Shown here: positions 18,400 through 28,630 of the stretch, in pieces
Layout of the letters: each line of letters starts with the position of its first letter
Numbering within the stretch: position 1 is the first letter of the stretch
NCBI GenBank assembly: GCA_016930485.1
Contig: JAFGGP010000041.1
Coordinates: 4,005 to 68,004 of the forward strand
Origin: Candidatus Omnitrophota bacterium
GTDB lineage: Bacteria > Omnitrophota > Gorgyraeia > JAFGGP01
Length of the DNA stretch: 64,000 nt
Direction: 5' to 3'
Translations under genes and position numbers: made by a program
Notes under the pieces: model-generated
What the model was told of the DNA's origin: nothing
Database searches by the model: none
What the model saw: the letters and a program-made list of their open reading frames with translations, nothing else

Positions 18400-18699
18400 T
18401 CACCTCAAGCGTAGGCTGATATCGATTAATGTGCGCACCAGAAAATATCTGAGAAAAAATATGATAAGAATGACAATAAAAGGAGACAGGTCGATACCGA
18501 TAGAATATAGCCCCAGCCTCCTGCGGATCGGATAGAGCATAGGTTCGGTCGTCTTCATAAGAAACTGCACTATCGGATTATAAGGATCCGGATTCACCCA
18601 GCTGATAAGGGCGCGGATCAGGATCAACCAGAAGCACAGGTTAAGCAGAATATCGATAATCTGTGCACACGCATTGAGAAAATTTCCTAATACAAACAT
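18400..18699 (-). CDS. yggT: YggT family membrane protein
   Basis: 99 aa, two hydrophobic segments, conserved LISWV.PDPYNP motif. Confidence 0.8.
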   Translation of the reverse strand: MFVLGNFLNACAQIIDILLNLCFWLILIRALISWVNPDPYNPIVQFLMKTTEPMLYPIRRRLGLYSIGIDLSPFIVILIIFFLRYFLVRTLIDISLRLR

Positions 18700-18720
18700 A
18701 GGTCACTCCTCGTTTCTTAA

Positions 18721-18820
18721 GCAACCTCGCCCGCTGAAAGCGGGCTCAGGGCCCTTCCGTTCGAGGTTCCTTGCGCCGGTATACGTAAGGCCGGTGCCGG
18801 TTTAATGCTGGCGATGTATA
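18721..18820. repeat. ~100-nt conserved intergenic element, copy A (proC-yggT spacer)
   Basis: The 57-nt core gcaacctcgcccgctgaaagcgggctcagggcccttccgttcgaggttccttgcgcc is ~90% identical to 27424-27480. The 3' tail ggcgatgtatat is also shared. Confidence 0.75.
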
Positions 18821-18822
18821 TT

Positions 18823-19668
18823 TTATACCTTCCTATTGCCGCAAGACAGTTTCCTGGAAAGGGTCTCTGAGCGTCTTTTGGCTGCCCGTACGCCGCTGAT
18901 GAACGACTCGGCTATCCGCCTCTGGTTAAAAACGCGCAGCGCCGCCTCGGTGGTGCCGCCTTTTGAGGCAACGCGCTTGATAAGATCTTTCATTGATGTC
19001 CTGCTCACACAGGCCATGTTGTTCACATAGGCCATGAACGAGGAACCGATGGCTGTCTCAATCGCAAGCTCTCTGGCAAGTAACCGCGGCAACCCTGACT
19101 CCCACCCCACCTTCTCAAGCGCCCCAATTATGTAAAAAAAGTAGGCCGGCCCGCTGCCTGAAACAGCGGTCACTATATCAAGATCTTTTTCTTTAACTTC
19201 GACCACCTTACCGACATTTTCAAAGATCCGCATAATGGCTTTTTTGTCTTTCTTTGTCACAGCGCTTGTCGCGCATAGGGCCGCAACCCCCTGACCGATT
19301 AAAGCAGGCATATTCGGCATTGCGCGTACTATCTTAGCGCGGGTACCGAAGAATTTTTTCAAAAAACTGATCTGTACCCCTGCACAGATTGAAACGATAA
19401 TCGCTCTGTCGTTGACTGCTTCGGCTATGTCTTCGAGAAGCGCTTGTAGGTCTTGCGGCTTAACCGCAAGAATCAACACCTGAGACTTTTTGGCAACCGT
19501 ACGTGCATCAACTATTTGTTCTTTAGGAAGCTTTTTTTTGAGTTTCGTTCGGACAGTATTGCTCTTATCCGCGACAAAGATATCGGTCTTTTTTGCCGCT
19601 CCTGTTACAATAAGGCCCCTGAGGAGCGCTGAACCCATATTGCCGCAACCGATTATGCCGTATTTCAT
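18823..19668 (-). CDS. proC: pyrroline-5-carboxylate reductase
   Basis: 281 aa with GIIGCGNMG and the C-terminal SKGGTTEAAL motif. Confidence 0.9.
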   Translation of the reverse strand: MKYGIIGCGNMGSALLRGLIVTGAAKKTDIFVADKSNTVRTKLKKKLPKEQIVDARTVAKKSQVLILAVKPQDLQALLEDIAEAVNDRAIIVSICAGVQISFLKKFFGTRAKIVRAMPNMPALIGQGVAALCATSAVTKKDKKAIMRIFENVGKVVEVKEKDLDIVTAVSGSGPAYFFYIIGALEKVGWESGLPRLLARELAIETAIGSSFMAYVNNMACVSRTSMKDLIKRVASKGGTTEAALRVFNQRRIAESFISGVRAAKRRSETLSRKLSCGNRKV

Positions 19669-19816
19669 GAGTAGATAATGTGTTGAACGTTAATGAAATA
19701 AATTATAGGTCGCAGACCGTCTGCGAATGAAATCAAGTACTCATTTTATTGCTGGTTTCGTCTATTTCCCAATACTTTTATAAACATTCGTGCTGGGTTT
19801 AATTCGGACAGCACCT

Positions 19817-19910
19817 TAGCTTTGCTTCGCTCCCTACGTTGCGCATCCATTGAGATCCTTCGACAAGCTCAGGATAAATTCGCCCCCGCAGCTTCGTTTT
19901 GCGAAGCTAA
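19817..19910. repeat. palindromic repeat of the LSLSKD / FDKLR type, single copy
   Basis: tccttcgacaagctcaggat translates as SFDKLRI on plus and FILSLSKD on minus. It is flanked by GCTTCGC (19824-30) and GCGAAGC (19901-07), with an inner hairpin AGCTTCG-ttttg-CGAAGCT. Confidence 0.5.
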
Positions 19911-19920
19911 ACGGTGGGGC

Positions 19921-20610: not shown

Positions 20611-20896
20611 CGAGGTGGTACTGTAGCACAAAGTGGTGGAAAGTTCAATGAAAAAGGCCACATGCAACTAAGACGTGCGCGCCGCAAAAAGCGTGCGTCT
20701 CTAGTTACATACACCCCGCCCTTTTGGGTGTTGTAAGGCCTGCCCCGATAGTAGGATATATGAACAAGATAAGCCCATGGCAAAGGCGGAACAGAAACAA
20801 CAACGGACGTATAAAGCGTAAGCATTATACTGTCCAAGGGCAGGGTTAATTCCGGTAACAAATTGTGTTCATGCTATTCCACAACTTGTGTCGTCG

Positions 20897-22085: not shown

Positions 22086-22892
22086 TTATTTCGGTCCTAT
22101 AACAACATCCTCAAATCGCAGATCGATATACTTTATCTTCGAGGAATCAATAGCAAAATTTTTAAAGGTCTCCTCCAGCAGCTGCAACTTGCGGGTAAAG
22201 GGGGCGAATCCGACGCGTATCTCAATGCCGCCCTTCTGGTACAGATAGATATTCCGGCTGTCGGTAACGTCGATCTCGTAGATCTCGAACTCCTCCGGCA
22301 GATCAAGCCCGCGTATTTCTTCGATCAGGGTAAAGGCGGCCTTGATGTTGTCATCCGCGATGTTCTCCCCGACCTGGGAATCCTTGATCTTGCGCCGTTC
22401 ATCCACGATGACGGGAAGACCGGCAAGAGGCAGATTCGAGGCCCCCGGCAGAATGAGACCCTCCCGGCTGATGGGGAAATATCTGCCCGATTTTATCTGG
22501 GCAAAAAGTGCCCTTTTGGTCGCCTCGACAAAAATGGTGTGCGGAAGCCGGCGGTGCACAACGATGTTTTTGTACTCGGGAAACTGCTGGACGATGCGGC
22601 GATGGACATCCGCGAGATGAACATCAAAGATGCACTCTCCCTCCGCAATATCGCCGTGGAGCTCGATCGTTTTATCCGTATTTTTCTCCGAGATAATAAT
22701 CGACGAAACTTTAAAGTAGGGCGCCTCTCTGGCCGCAGAATACAGATAGACCCCGAAGAGTACAACGGCCATCACCGCAAAGATGCCCGACCAGGTCTGC
22801 TGCAGCAACCTCGCCACGTAAGGGCCGACAGATACCTGGCGACGCTCACGCGGCCTCCTTGCCCTTGTTTTGGTTTTCTTTGTTCTTTTCAT
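22086..22892 (-). CDS. ftsQ: cell division protein FtsQ (POTRA domain)
   Basis: 268 aa: basic N-terminus, one TM helix (IFAVMAVVLFGVYLY), then a POTRA-like region. Position between ddl and ftsA. Confidence 0.75.
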   Translation of the reverse strand: MKRTKKTKTRARRPRERRQVSVGPYVARLLQQTWSGIFAVMAVVLFGVYLYSAAREAPYFKVSSIIISEKNTDKTIELHGDIAEGECIFDVHLADVHRRIVQQFPEYKNIVVHRRLPHTIFVEATKRALFAQIKSGRYFPISREGLILPGASNLPLAGLPVIVDERRKIKDSQVGENIADDNIKAAFTLIEEIRGLDLPEEFEIYEIDVTDSRNIYLYQKGGIEIRVGFAPFTRKLQLLEETFKNFAIDSSKIKYIDLRFEDVVIGPK

Positions 22893-24877: not shown

Positions 24878-26275
24878 TTACGATACCGCCAGCCGCGCAG
24901 AAAACTTTCTGGCAATCTCACCGATGTCGCCCGCACCTAATATCAGCACCACATCGTGCGGCCTGACAACACACTCCAAAAAATCCAGTATCCTCTCCTG
25001 ACTGAAAAAATAAAGACGGTCATAACCGCCCTTCTCGAGCGCCTTGTAAAACGACCATCCTGAGACGTCCTCGAGCGGCGCCTCTGATGCCGCATAGATA
25101 TCGGTCACCGCCAGATAGTCGACACCCTGGAAGCAGCTGACAAACAGCTCCTGCAGGCACTTTGTGCGTGAATACCGGTGCGGCTGAAATACACAGATAA
25201 TCCTTCTCTGGAGCCTTTTTGCCGCCTGTATAATGGCCCGTATTGCCGTCGGATGATGGGCATAGTCCTCAACGATCATGATGTCATCCGGGGCGTACCT
25301 GACTTCAAAACGCCGTTTGGTCCCGTCGAATAAACGCAGCCCCTTCCTGACCGCGGCGAAGCCGACACCGGCCTGCATGGTTGCCGCCGTGGCAGCAAGG
25401 GCGTTCTCCACGTTGTGAATGCCCGGCACCGCGAGTTCGATAGTGCCCAATTCGGTACCGTGGGCAACGCAGTCAAAGCGCGAGCCGAACTCCATCAGGG
25501 TGAGATTGCGCGGATAAAAATCCGCCTCGCTCGAGAGACCGAATGACACAGAGGGGCCGTCCAGCCCTTGAAGCAGGCGGCCGGTGTATTCGTTAAGGCT
25601 GTTGACGATCAATGCACCCTCCGGACGGCGGTTCTGGGCAAAGCGGCGGTAGGCCGCTATGATCTCGTTTATATCATGATAGTAATCCATGTGCTCCAAG
25701 TCGATATTGGTAATGACCGGGTATGTCGGACTGAGTTCCAGAAAGGAACCGTCGCTCTCATCGGTCTCGGTAATCAGGAGAGATCCGGAGCCGCTGTGGG
25801 CATTGGCATCCTGCAAAAACGAGGTGACCCCTCCGACCAGGACCGTCGGATCCAATCCGGCGTGCATGCAGATACTGGCGGTCATACCCGTTGTCGTGGT
25901 CTTCCCGTGCGCGCCGGAGATGGCGATAGAGGCGCATGGCCTGGCTATTTCGGCAAGCATCGTGCCCCTGGCAACCAGGGGGATGCCCCGCCTGCGCGCA
26001 GCCATGATCTCGGGGTTTTGTCTGGGGATGCATGACGAATAGACAATAAGATCGGCCCCGGAAATATTCGATCGGGCATGGCCGGTAAAAATCGTGATGC
26101 CCAGGGCTGCCATACGGTCTGTAAGGCTGTTTGCCTTAAGATCAGAACCTGAGACCGCATAGCCCCGCCGGAACAAAATCTGCGCAATCGCGCTCATTCC
26201 TACCCCGCCGATACCGACAAAGTGGATATGCCGTTTACGCTCCAACATCCCTTTCTTTCTGTTGAATATGTTCAT
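24878..26275 (-). CDS. murC: UDP-N-acetylmuramate--L-alanine ligase
   Basis: 465 aa with FVGIGGVGMS and GAHGKTTTT motifs. Confidence 0.9.
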   Translation of the reverse strand: MNIFNRKKGMLERKRHIHFVGIGGVGMSAIAQILFRRGYAVSGSDLKANSLTDRMAALGITIFTGHARSNISGADLIVYSSCIPRQNPEIMAARRRGIPLVARGTMLAEIARPCASIAISGAHGKTTTTGMTASICMHAGLDPTVLVGGVTSFLQDANAHSGSGSLLITETDESDGSFLELSPTYPVITNIDLEHMDYYHDINEIIAAYRRFAQNRRPEGALIVNSLNEYTGRLLQGLDGPSVSFGLSSEADFYPRNLTLMEFGSRFDCVAHGTELGTIELAVPGIHNVENALAATAATMQAGVGFAAVRKGLRLFDGTKRRFEVRYAPDDIMIVEDYAHHPTAIRAIIQAAKRLQRRIICVFQPHRYSRTKCLQELFVSCFQGVDYLAVTDIYAASEAPLEDVSGWSFYKALEKGGYDRLYFFSQERILDFLECVVRPHDVVLILGAGDIGEIARKFSARLAVS

Positions 26276-27405
26276 AGTTCCCCTGTGTGCAGTTGTAAAA
26301 TCCGTTCGGCCAGACGCTGCCCGGCATCATCATACGTAAAACGCCGTATATGCGCAGAGAGCCTCTCCAGAAGCCCCTCTTCATCGACTGTATCGGCGAT
26401 CATATCCGCGAGACGCTCCGGCGTCGCCCTGTGTTGTTCCAGCACAAGGGCCGCACCGGCCCTCTCCAAAAGACGCGCGTTCGCCGCCTGATGCGAAGAG
26501 GCATAGGGATAGGCAATAAGAATCGCGGGCAGACCAAAACAGGAAAGCTCGGCTATCGTTGTCGCCCCTGCGCGTCCGATAACGAGATCGGCCGAGAGAA
26601 AGACATCCTCCATATTGTCGATAAAATCCCTTACGCAATACCGGCACCGCAGGTCGCGGGACTCGCTGTTTACTCGGGCCGCATCAACGGTCCCGGCAAG
26701 ATGAAGCACCTGAAACCGCCTGTTTCGCTCCTCGAGCAACCCGGCGGTTGCGACAAAAAGTCTGTTGATAAAAGACGAGCCTTTGCTCCCCCCCATAACG
26801 GCGATCGTAAAACAGTCGGGGGTAAGCCCGAACTTCTCGCGGGACGCCGCCACCGCCTCACGTTGCTGCCGCGCCTTCGCAGAAAACCGGCGTATCGGAT
26901 TGCCGGTAAGGGTGATGCGTCCTTTACTGAGAAATGTCTGCGTCTCCGGAAAACTCACCGCAACCATATCCGCAAACGGAACCAACATCCTGTTCGCGCG
27001 CCCAAAGGTGACATTCTGTTCATGAATTACCGTTCTGGCTCCCAACATCCGTGAGCAGACTACCGGCAGAAACGACTGGTAACCGCCAAAGCCCACCGTC
27101 GTCCCGGGAGACAACTGCTTCATAAGCCGAAAAATCCGCGGAAACTGTGCGAAATAACGCATAATCGATCCGAGATACGTCAACGGTCGTGAGGAATCGA
27201 CCCTTCCAAACTGTACGGCGTGCAAGATCAACCGGTCCAGCTCCTCAGCCCTTTTTCTGAGATACCCGTTGCAGGGTTCATTATCGCTGCAGACAAAAAT
27301 AACCCGGGCCCGGCTGTCCAGCATGAGAATCGTCTCCGCAACACACATCGCCGGAAACAGATGCCCGGCCGACCCGCCGCCCACAAGAACAATCGGTTTG
27401 TCCAT
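26272..27405 (-). CDS. murG: UDP-GlcNAc:lipid I N-acetylglucosaminyltransferase
   Basis: Start trimmed to MDKPIVLVGGGSAGHLFP. The 424-aa track ORF runs through an intergenic repeat. Confidence 0.9.
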   Translation of the reverse strand: MDKPIVLVGGGSAGHLFPAMCVAETILMLDSRARVIFVCSDNEPCNGYLRKRAEELDRLILHAVQFGRVDSSRPLTYLGSIMRYFAQFPRIFRLMKQLSPGTTVGFGGYQSFLPVVCSRMLGARTVIHEQNVTFGRANRMLVPFADMVAVSFPETQTFLSKGRITLTGNPIRRFSAKARQQREAVAASREKFGLTPDCFTIAVMGGSKGSSFINRLFVATAGLLEERNRRFQVLHLAGTVDAARVNSESRDLRCRYCVRDFIDNMEDVFLSADLVIGRAGATTIAELSCFGLPAILIAYPYASSHQAANARLLERAGAALVLEQHRATPERLADMIADTVDEEGLLERLSAHIRRFTYDDAGQRLAERILQLHTGEL

Positions 27406-27423
27406 AATTACCCGGCGTCCTGA

Positions 27424-27525
27424 GCAACCTCGCCTGCTGAAAGCAGGCCCCAGGCCCTTCCGTTCGAGGTTCCTCGCGCCTGCATGAGTAAGTCCGCTGT
27501 TTCCTTCATACCGGCGATGTACATA
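27424..27525. repeat. ~100-nt conserved intergenic element, copy B (ftsW-murG spacer)
   Basis: gcaacctcgcctgctgaaagcaggccccaggcccttccgttcgaggttcctcgcgcc ... ggcgatgtacat. See copy A at 18721. Confidence 0.75.
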
Positions 27526-27535
27526 GGTTGCATTT

Positions 27536-28630
27536 CTATTCCACATCGCGAGAAACGTTAAGCAATAGTCCTATACCCGCCATATTCGCCAAAAGGGCGC
27601 TCCCGCCGTAACTGATAAAAGGCAGTGGTAATCCCTTGGTGGGGATCGAGCCGCTGATTGCCCCGATATTGACCAGCACCTCGAAGGCAAGCATCACGGT
27701 AATCCCAAAAGCAAGATAAAAGGCAAATCTGTCTTTAATGCCGCGCGCCAGCCGGAAGCACTTGTAGAAAAGAAGCACAAAAAGTGCCAGAATGCACAGG
27801 GTGCCGATCAGGCCGCACTCCTCGCCGATAATAGCAAATATGAAATCGGTATACGCCTCCGGCAGATAAAATAATTTCTGGAGGCCGGCCCCCAGCCCGA
27901 CACCGGTCATCCCCCCCGACCCCAGGGCAAGATATGACTGGATAATCTGAAAACCCGACCCCTGGGGGTCTGCCCACGGATTCAGAAAAGTCAGCACCCG
28001 TGCCCTGCGAAACGGTATTCGCCATATGGCAAAATAAAATACAGGCAGTGAGCTTAAAAAACTGCCGACCAGATACGATGACCGGATGCCCCCCAAAAAG
28101 AACATGACGCCGATCAGAAGACTGAGTTCAATAACCCTCCCCAAATCCGGTTCCAGCAAAACAAGTCCCAGCATAAAAAGCAACGCACATGCGGGAACCA
28201 AAAGTCCCTTCTTCAAGTCATTAATATGGCTCCCCTTGCGTGATAATAACTCGGCAAGGTAAAGTGCCAGGGCCAGTTTCATGCACTCGGACGGCTGGAA
28301 ACCGAACAGGCCCAGACGCAACCACCGTTTTGCGCCTCCTATCTCCTTGGCAACCGGCGGCAGAAATACCAGCATCAACAGGAATAATGAAACGAGAAAA
28401 AACGGTTTTGTCCTTTTTTTCAGTGTCTCGATACGAATCCCCAGTATCAGAAATGCGACCGCACCCCCCAGGGCAATCGCCAAAAGCTGGCGTTTTAAAA
28501 AATACATACTATCGCCTGCGTGTTCATAGGCAAAGATCGAGCTTGAGCTGTATATCATGATGCATCCGAACGATATCAGAATCAGAACGATCATGACAAT
28601 ATCCTGCCGCAAGGCCTTAACCCTATCCAT
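27536..28630 (-). CDS. ftsW: SEDS-family peptidoglycan polymerase FtsW
   Basis: 364 aa, polytopic, with QPSE and PTKGLPLPFISYGGS motifs. Confidence 0.85.
   Translation of the reverse strand: MDRVKALRQDIVMIVLILISFGCIMIYSSSSIFAYEHAGDSMYFLKRQLLAIALGGAVAFLILGIRIETLKKRTKPFFLVSLFLLMLVFLPPVAKEIGGAKRWLRLGLFGFQPSECMKLALALYLAELLSRKGSHINDLKKGLLVPACALLFMLGLVLLEPDLGRVIELSLLIGVMFFLGGIRSSYLVGSFLSSLPVFYFAIWRIPFRRARVLTFLNPWADPQGSGFQIIQSYLALGSGGMTGVGLGAGLQKLFYLPEAYTDFIFAIIGEECGLIGTLCILALFVLLFYKCFRLARGIKDRFAFYLAFGITVMLAFEVLVNIGAISGSIPTKGLPLPFISYGGSALLANMAGIGLLLNVSRDVE

Follow-up and report, generated by a model that had tools for sequence, protein, structure and literature searches.

A lineage-specific, two-copy intercistronic repeat with a predicted stem-loop in and beside the dcw cluster of an Omnitrophota genome

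Two spacers between co-directional genes, one between proC and yggT and the other between ftsW and murG, contain similar sequences of roughly 100 nt in a 64-kb stretch of DNA (hereafter the window; 64,000 nt in total) from a "Candidatus Omnitrophota bacterium" metagenome-assembled genome (MAG). The pair raises the question of what kind of element was placed at these junctions, and whether its transcript, its DNA or a peptide encoded by it has been kept. An earlier reading of the sequence alone (the sequence-only reading) had proposed a candidate structured RNA, citing a core about 90% identical between copies, a hairpin with a compensatory substitution, an enclosing outer helix and a shared 3' tail.

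A repeat search of the window aligned 18715-18837 with 27418-27540 over 123 nt, ungapped, at 76% identity. Within this alignment, a 58-nt core (18720-18777 and 27423-27480) was 89.7% identical by blastn (E=2.7e-14), and the tail GGCGATGTA(T/C)AT was visible in both copies. The conserved pair, its ~90% core and its shared tail were thus all borne out. A 21-mer common to both copies, GGCCCTTCCGTTCGAGGTTCC, had 0.00 chance matches expected from shuffles. Because shuffles never gave the shared 21-mer, and given the blastn E value, chance similarity of the two copies is excluded. Beyond the repeat ends identity dropped to background on either side, and the flanks were unrelated. The repeat unit was modelled as 105 nt:

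18716 to 18820, minus strand: copy A, in the proC/yggT spacer (covariance model, 129.4 bits)
27419 to 27523, minus strand: copy B, in the ftsW/murG spacer (covariance model, 130.2 bits)

Over this unit nucleotide identity was ~78% and GC content was 0.59-0.60. Divergence was unevenly distributed, with 8 differences in the 58 positions of the core and 15 in the remaining 47 positions of the unit (Fisher p=0.033). Both copies had the same orientation relative to transcription and occupied nearly the whole of their spacer, from a few nt past the upstream stop codon to 16-19 nt short of the downstream ATG.

The flanking genes were assigned by Pfam and, in the case of murG, also by the NCBI protein and the N-termini of relatives:

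18823 to 19668, minus strand: proC (P5CR), upstream of copy A
18400 to 18699, minus strand: yggT (YGGT), downstream of copy A
27536 to 28630, minus strand: ftsW, upstream of copy B
26272 to 27405, minus strand: murG, downstream of copy B, start at 27405

Nearly every gene of the window was on the minus strand, including all four flanking genes, so that the mRNA is the reverse complement of the sequence as it was first read and the hairpin loop reads UUUCA. The gene identities and co-direction given by the sequence-only reading agree with Pfam, but its sequence had been taken from the antisense strand. Its distance of 20-25 nt to the downstream start codon also needed revision: from the end of the outer helix to the ATG there are 19 nt in copy A and 16 nt in copy B.

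Copy B lies within a complete dcw cluster with the order mraZ, rsmH, an unassigned 128-aa ORF, ftsI, murE, murF, mraY, murD, ftsW, [copy B], murG, murC, murB, ddl, ftsQ and ftsA. Downstream of this cluster come yggS, proC, [copy A], yggT and the gene for a purine-nucleoside phosphorylase (pnp). No ftsZ followed ftsA; a 229-nt spacer (20668-20896) leads to yggS, and a related Omnitrophota contig shared this ftsA-to-yggS order (L022, 2085-2261). A nested GC-rich double hairpin was found immediately past the yggS stop codon (19882-19920, minus strand) and a promoter-like site, TTGGGA-18-TAAAAT, ahead of proC (19743-19772, minus strand). Together these two features suggest that proC-[copy A]-yggT-pnp may form a transcription unit apart from the dcw operon.

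The start of murG was placed at ATG 27405 and not at the longest-ORF start, 27546, because the N-terminal Pfam domain starts only at residue 52 of the longer ORF, because the NCBI protein has 377 aa, and because the proteins of relatives begin MRVLVAAGGSGGH or MHRILIVSGGSGGH, compared with MDKPIVLVGGGSAGH here. The upstream ATG at 27546 overlaps the end of ftsW by 11 nt and reads through the entire element in the murG frame. A Logan gene call of 424 aa makes MurG 47 residues too long relative to the 377-aa NCBI protein and to relatives. An in-frame N-terminal extension of MurG was ruled out by the N-termini of relatives.

Each 58-nt core, when folded alone, gave the same minimum free energy (MFE) structure, consisting of an outer helix (P1), an internal loop and a terminal hairpin (P2). 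P1 comprised 3+6 bp with one G.G mismatch, the 17-nt internal loop was entirely on the 5' side, and P2 comprised 7 bp closed by a 3-nt loop. The predicted parts, with the strands of each helix given in mRNA sense, were as follows:

18719 to 18772, minus strand: structured core of copy A (MFE -24.7 kcal/mol, z -2.21)
18772-18770 and 18768-18763 with 18728-18723 and 18721-18719, minus strand: P1 of copy A
18762-18746, minus strand: internal loop of copy A, sequence GAACGGAAGGGCCCUGA
18745-18739 with 18735-18729, minus strand: P2 of copy A, loop UUC
27422 to 27475, minus strand: structured core of copy B (MFE -26.5 kcal/mol, z -2.07)
27475-27473 and 27471-27466 with 27431-27426 and 27424-27422, minus strand: P1 of copy B
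27465-27449, minus strand: internal loop of copy B
27448-27442 with 27438-27432, minus strand: P2 of copy B
18774 to 18813, minus strand: 5' domain of copy A, a 4-bp CGCC/GGCG helix (18813-18810 with 18777-18774) around a poorly conserved 32-nt segment
18820-18814, minus strand: conserved tail UAUACAU before the 5' domain of copy A
27477 to 27516, minus strand: 5' domain of copy B, CGCC/GGCG (27516-27513 with 27480-27477) around a variable 32-nt segment

An independent inverted-repeat search recovered the hairpin arms, in copy A as GCCCGCT/AGCGGGC at 18729-18735/18739-18745 and in copy B as GCCTGCT/AGCAGGC at 27432-27438/27442-27448. The outer arms were AAGCAACCTCG/CGAGGTTCCTT in copy A (18719-18729/18762-18772) and were located at 27422-27432/27465-27475 in copy B. 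Compared with dinucleotide shuffles, the cores had z-scores of -2.1 to -2.4 on either strand, and folds of the whole spacers were no better than shuffles (z -0.7 to -1.5). The 32-nt variable segment formed its own hairpin in copy B only. The CGCC/GGCG helix is neither supported nor contradicted, because it is invariant between the copies.

RNAalifold recovered P1 and P2 on either strand, with two pairs changed on both sides. The first of these, 18732/18742, is C-G in one copy and U-A in the other (mRNA sense) and is the hairpin substitution pointed out in the sequence-only reading, here confirmed as a true double change; the outer helix of that reading was likewise recovered by RNAalifold and by the inverted-repeat search. 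The second, 18719/18772, is a newly found compensatory pair in P1 (A-U and G-C), so that the covariation extends beyond the single pair first seen. In a 20-pair structure all pairs were intact in both copies, with two double changes and no broken pair. When the partners were slid by 1-3 columns as a control, pairing fell to 30-48% and no double changes remained.

The significance of this pattern was measured by simulation, in which the structure was taken from copy A alone, because the standard shuffle control is powerless with two rows, and the eight core differences (seven of them transitions) were placed randomly. No pair was broken in 3.7% of simulations, at least two double changes occurred in 1.2%, and both outcomes were combined in 0.16% (p ~0.0016). 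The stems were nearly identical, with 14 of 16 core pairs unchanged between copies. All varying pairs, in these two sequences, were G-C/A-U changes and none involved G-U; as a consequence, minus-strand RNA, plus-strand RNA and single-stranded DNA fit the structure equally. The compensatory substitutions expected of a structured RNA are therefore present, in two sequences and in a form that is not strand- or RNA-specific, and the pairing evidence is just as compatible with a hairpin formed by the DNA of a mobile repeat.

Further copies and known families were sought with the means that the sequence-only reading had proposed, a covariance model of the two copies and Rfam, and with several others. 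Neither proposed search extended the pair. No third copy was found in the 64-kb window by blastn-short, nhmmer --max or the covariance model with filters off, and the covariance model had no match in the loci of related Omnitrophota. The best other covariance-model match in the window, 20659-20737 (12.9 bits, E=0.26), had no similarity on inspection, and two 12-mer matches, at 22804 and 22913, were in coding sequence and attributable to chance. An exact 19-mer had two matches in 185,579 species-representative genomes, both chance matches inside unrelated sequence, and no match in viral contigs. A gapped pattern of the loop plus internal loop gave six chance matches only in JGI metagenomes. No match was found by blastn in plasmid and phage collections or, at word size 11, in 5,426 E. 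coli genomes; the idea, raised beforehand, that the pair could be a fragment of a known repeat or IS end found no match in these collections. Literature searches on Omnitrophota repeats and on run SRR13394437 returned nothing useful.

Rfam at gathering thresholds identified two features in the whole window, both elsewhere: an FMN riboswitch (RF00050, 50210-50341, minus strand, 100.4 bits) and a tRNA gene (RF00005, 45799-45873, minus strand, 68.2 bits). At E<=10 nothing relevant was found at either locus, the single chance match being to mir-184 (11.6 bits) at 18600-18622, outside the element. An intrinsic terminator was rejected: neither copy showed a site resembling a terminator on the mRNA (minus) strand, in agreement with the sequence-only reading, and the sequence after P2/P1, GCUUAAGAAAC in copy A and GCUCAGGACGC in copy B, has no U-tract. 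No sigma-70 promoter was predicted on the minus strand at either copy. An integron attC site, a dif/Xer site, a K-turn, a tRNA T-arm and a guanidine-II riboswitch were set aside on reading the sequence against their consensus features. A DGR template/variable repeat pair was likewise set aside, as the differences between the copies are not adenine-specific. Altogether, the designation of candidate structured RNA holds only for a two-copy, lineage-specific element. The element belongs to the broad class of small structured intergenic repeats, with evidence for its structure and with no family to which it is assigned.

The flanking proteins were 100% identical to MBN1794666, MBN1794667 and MBN1794674 from a "Candidatus Omnitrophota bacterium" MAG and were otherwise found only in Logan contigs of run SRR13394437, all of which end within the window. 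Among 5.8 billion proteins the next-best MurG was 37% identical; the next-best ProC was 50% identical, followed by ~44%, from other Omnitrophota. In the two best MurG lineages ftsW and murG were 1 nt apart or overlapped by 8 nt. Two Omnitrophota lineages with the order ftsA-yggS-proC-yggT-pnp had proC and yggT 1 nt apart, with the yggT Shine-Dalgarno GGAGG inside the last proC codons (L019, 3790-3812; L022, 3787-3809). This tight proC/yggT coupling is missing in the present MAG. Since the junctions of relatives are 1 nt long or overlapping, the spacers found here are derived.

The nearest relative (ProC 50% identical) had a 105-nt proC|yggT spacer that was AT-rich and unrelated to the element (L018, 1111-1215); the Shine-Dalgarno and start region past this spacer resembled that of yggT here. 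Five TTAAC-type motifs (GTTAAC, ATTAACC, ATTAACT, ATTAACT and GTTAACC) were found in the relative's spacer. In all relatives examined, the nearest of which are 37-50% identical at the protein level, the element was absent from the same gene junctions. Judging by these comparisons, the element was acquired at both junctions within this lineage and is not an ancient regulator of murG or yggT, since the junctions of relatives are tight and the spacer of the nearest relative is unrelated.

Translation signals downstream of the element differed between the two sites:

18706 to 18710, minus strand: Shine-Dalgarno AGGAG of yggT, at an optimal spacing of 6 nt before ATG 18699 and 8 nt past the end of P1 (copy A), read from the sequence
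27408 to 27533, minus strand: 41-codon ORF spanning the copy B spacer

No Shine-Dalgarno was evident for murG. The 41-codon ORF begins with an ATG 2 nt past the ftsW stop codon (TAG, 27538-27536) and ends with a TAA 2 nt ahead of the murG ATG at 27405. In a post hoc test, ~0.8% of shuffled spacers contained an ORF that reached within 8 nt of both spacer ends. The peptide of this ORF was not conserved and had no homologs. Because it bridges the ftsW stop codon to the murG start codon, the ORF suggests that ribosomes may be relayed from ftsW to murG over the insertion by termination-reinitiation.

The best reading of these results, although held with a little less than even confidence, is a lineage-specific repeat, interspersed between cistrons, with a transcribed stem-loop that selection maintains. 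A repeat of ~105 nt would have come to occupy, by duplication or insertion, two junctions between cistrons of minus-strand operons in a single Omnitrophota genome: ftsW|murG, within the dcw cluster, and proC|yggT, in the next unit downstream. Copying of a repeat into two operon junctions is indicated because the copies align without gaps, their stems are near-identical and relatives are without the element. The element would be transcribed within the polycistronic mRNA, where its core would fold into P1, the internal loop and P2. Selection appears to have preserved this fold since the copies diverged, because compensatory changes occurred and the core evolved more slowly. With its stem-loop 16-19 nt before the next start codon, the element would act as an intercistronic RNA module, possibly an RNase barrier or recognition site that sets the relative stability of the mRNA segments, or alternatively an insulator in place of the tight stop/start coupling of relatives. 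Downstream translation would be assured separately, at copy A by the strong Shine-Dalgarno and at copy B by the 41-codon ORF if it serves as a relay. Several points tell against this reading. Ribosomes on the copy B relay ORF would melt the structure if the ORF is translated, and the near-identical stems and equal lengths look like those of a recent repeat and not of an old regulatory RNA. The unexceptional folds of the whole spacers, the strand-neutral pair changes in just two sequences and the absence of the element from every relative examined count against it as well.

A rival reading, judged fairly unlikely, is that of a selfish mobile element, non-autonomous and of the MITE, PATE or REP type, with no host function. 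On this account, the DNA hairpins would serve mobilisation by a transposase encoded elsewhere, and the Shine-Dalgarno at copy A and the relay ORF at copy B would be accommodations by the host. It is consistent with the high nucleotide identity, equal length and unrelated flanks of the copies, and with the state of both junctions in relatives, which are tight or otherwise filled. The relay ORF resembles a repair of lost coupling, and a DNA-hairpin constraint on master copies also predicts compensatory changes. MITEs span this size, and their transcripts typically form stable stem-loops (PMC10969869). Just two copies were present in 64 kb, however, despite ~20 spacers of at least 100 nt, no transposase family was found among the ~26 window ORFs with Pfam data (run here or precomputed on Logan contigs), and the plasmid, phage, E. 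coli, genome and metagenome collections gave no matches.

Known mobile repeats provide a more specific comparison. MITEs are defined as <500 bp and non-coding, with terminal inverted repeats of ~4-30 bp and, in young copies, flanking direct repeats; multiple dispersed copies, a related IS or transposase and AT-richness are further criteria (PMC10969869). The present element is short enough and non-coding (105-123 nt, no coding signature), but its strong inverted repeats, P1 and P2, lie inside the unit, in one half of it, and the two copies share no clear terminal pair. At the element ends only TCGCC/GGCGA pairs (8 of 12 positions over the terminal 12 nt), and GCAACCT/AGGTTGC is present in copy B only. 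No flanking direct repeat of at least 7 nt was found at either copy, target duplications of 2-4 nt not being judgeable from two copies, and the GC content of 0.59-0.60 departs from the AT-richness typical of MITEs. On these features the element does not look like a classical MITE.

MITE, ERIC and Correia transcripts alter mRNA fate via RNase III (Correia) or RNase E (ERIC) (PMC10969869). ERIC (enterobacterial repetitive intergenic consensus) and Correia/NEMIS are small repeats of MITE type that are transcribed together with adjacent genes. Like them, the element is ~100-150 nt in scale, lies in intergenic or intercistronic spacers that would be transcribed and would give a stable stem-loop transcript (PMC10969869). 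Unlike them, it is GC-rich, was seen in two copies and occurs in a different host phylum, and no long terminal inverted repeats, target duplication or similarity to the 5,426 E. coli genomes were found; with no E. coli match, similarity to the 127-bp enterobacterial ERIC consensus is absent. REP/BIME palindromic units are known as intercistronic mRNA stabilisers, as at malE-malF in E. coli, and REPs are 20-40 nt long, carry a conserved GTAG, number in the hundreds and are tied to RAYT transposases. The element resembles REP/BIME as a GC-rich hairpin between co-directional operon genes, with no U-tract and with compensatory changes that preserve the palindrome. It differs from REPs in its 105-nt length, its nested two-helix 54-nt core and its conserved asymmetric loop, and no GTAG motif was found on either strand of either copy.

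A more far-reaching reading is that the pair represents an undescribed class of intra-operon RNA module in a deep-branching Omnitrophota lineage. It would be a structured spacer between cistrons whose translation is coupled in relatives, and it would set the relative expression of division and cell-wall genes, by way of an independent Shine-Dalgarno for yggT and a termination-reinitiation relay ORF for murG. This reading was considered unlikely.

A dedicated cis-regulatory RNA of murG and yggT, acting as a ligand- or protein-binding leader or intra-operon element with the 17-nt internal loop as candidate binding site, was considered distinctly unlikely. Both copies share the loop segment GAACGGAAGGGCC without a change, and covarying helices flank it, but an identical 22-nt run is unsurprising at 14% divergence. 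The position is constant at 16-19 nt ahead of the start codon, and yggT and murG are both part of the extended division/envelope cluster. In copy A, the CCUCG arm of P1 could pair alternatively with CGAGG of the yggT Shine-Dalgarno region; this option is missing in copy B, and with no terminator either there is no expression platform common to the copies. Moreover, no Rfam family matched even at E<=10, the stems are too alike for old paralogous regulators, and the same junctions were without the element in every relative, as is not expected of a conserved murG/yggT regulator (nearest relatives 37-50% protein identity). A known parallel is EAR (eps-associated RNA) of Bacillus, which different species retain at the same position and for which an Rfam model exists. 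The element shares with EAR its setting, a structured RNA of ~100-120 nt between co-directional genes within a long envelope-related operon; unlike EAR, it has no Rfam match and is absent from relatives.

A function of the plus strand or of duplex DNA, as an antisense small RNA or as a palindromic operator for a dimeric protein, was judged very unlikely. Folding of the structure is just as good on the plus strand (z -2.4), where RNAalifold adds a 3' hairpin with G-U pairs, but four of the six pairs of that hairpin are G-U in copy B. A terminator-like hairpin with a T-rich tail is located inside copy A (18795-18813, plus strand), whereas copy B has no T-rich tail. There was no plus-strand promoter-like site near either copy, and the homology stops upstream on the plus strand, where a promoter would sit. 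As an operator, the 54-bp nested palindrome far exceeds usual sizes.

A small protein-coding gene in two copies is extremely improbable: one minus-strand frame is open through both copies and copy B has the 41-aa ORF with an ATG, but in copy A the shared frame lacks an ATG, GTG or TTG start, the differences are spread 7/7/10 across the three codon positions, peptide identity (~58%) is below nucleotide identity (78%), a six-frame peptide query of 5.8 billion proteins gave nothing at E<=10, and phmmer against 1.84 billion representative proteins gave four matches, all to long proteins and mostly over several stretches. The start codon, codon selection and homologs expected of a small protein gene were accordingly lacking. 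The best phmmer match, when aligned, proved to be a tandem-repeat protein (82-aa repeats) and spurious. This predicted protein (P0244, 967 aa) has an inflated phmmer score from its tandem 82-aa repeats and looks like a translated tandem DNA repeat. Rickettsia palindromic elements are a known case of repeats tolerated within translated sequence. Copy B is similar to these in being wholly within the relay ORF and also in frame with murG from the upstream ATG; it is unlike them in that the MurG start, by comparison with relatives, falls after the element, and copy A is in no canonical ORF.

Under either the selfish or the functional reading, the reach of the finding is confined to one lineage unless further copies appear. 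If the pair is only a selfish repeat, it would be a first and minor entry in a catalogue of Omnitrophota repeats, and a practical caution for annotation, as one gene call made murG 47 codons too long on account of the element. If the stem-loop is functional, an uncultured ultra-small lineage would have re-engineered two normally tightly coupled junctions of its essential division and cell-wall operons with one reusable RNA module, and copy B would offer a compact example of translational coupling that a relay ORF restored after an insertion.
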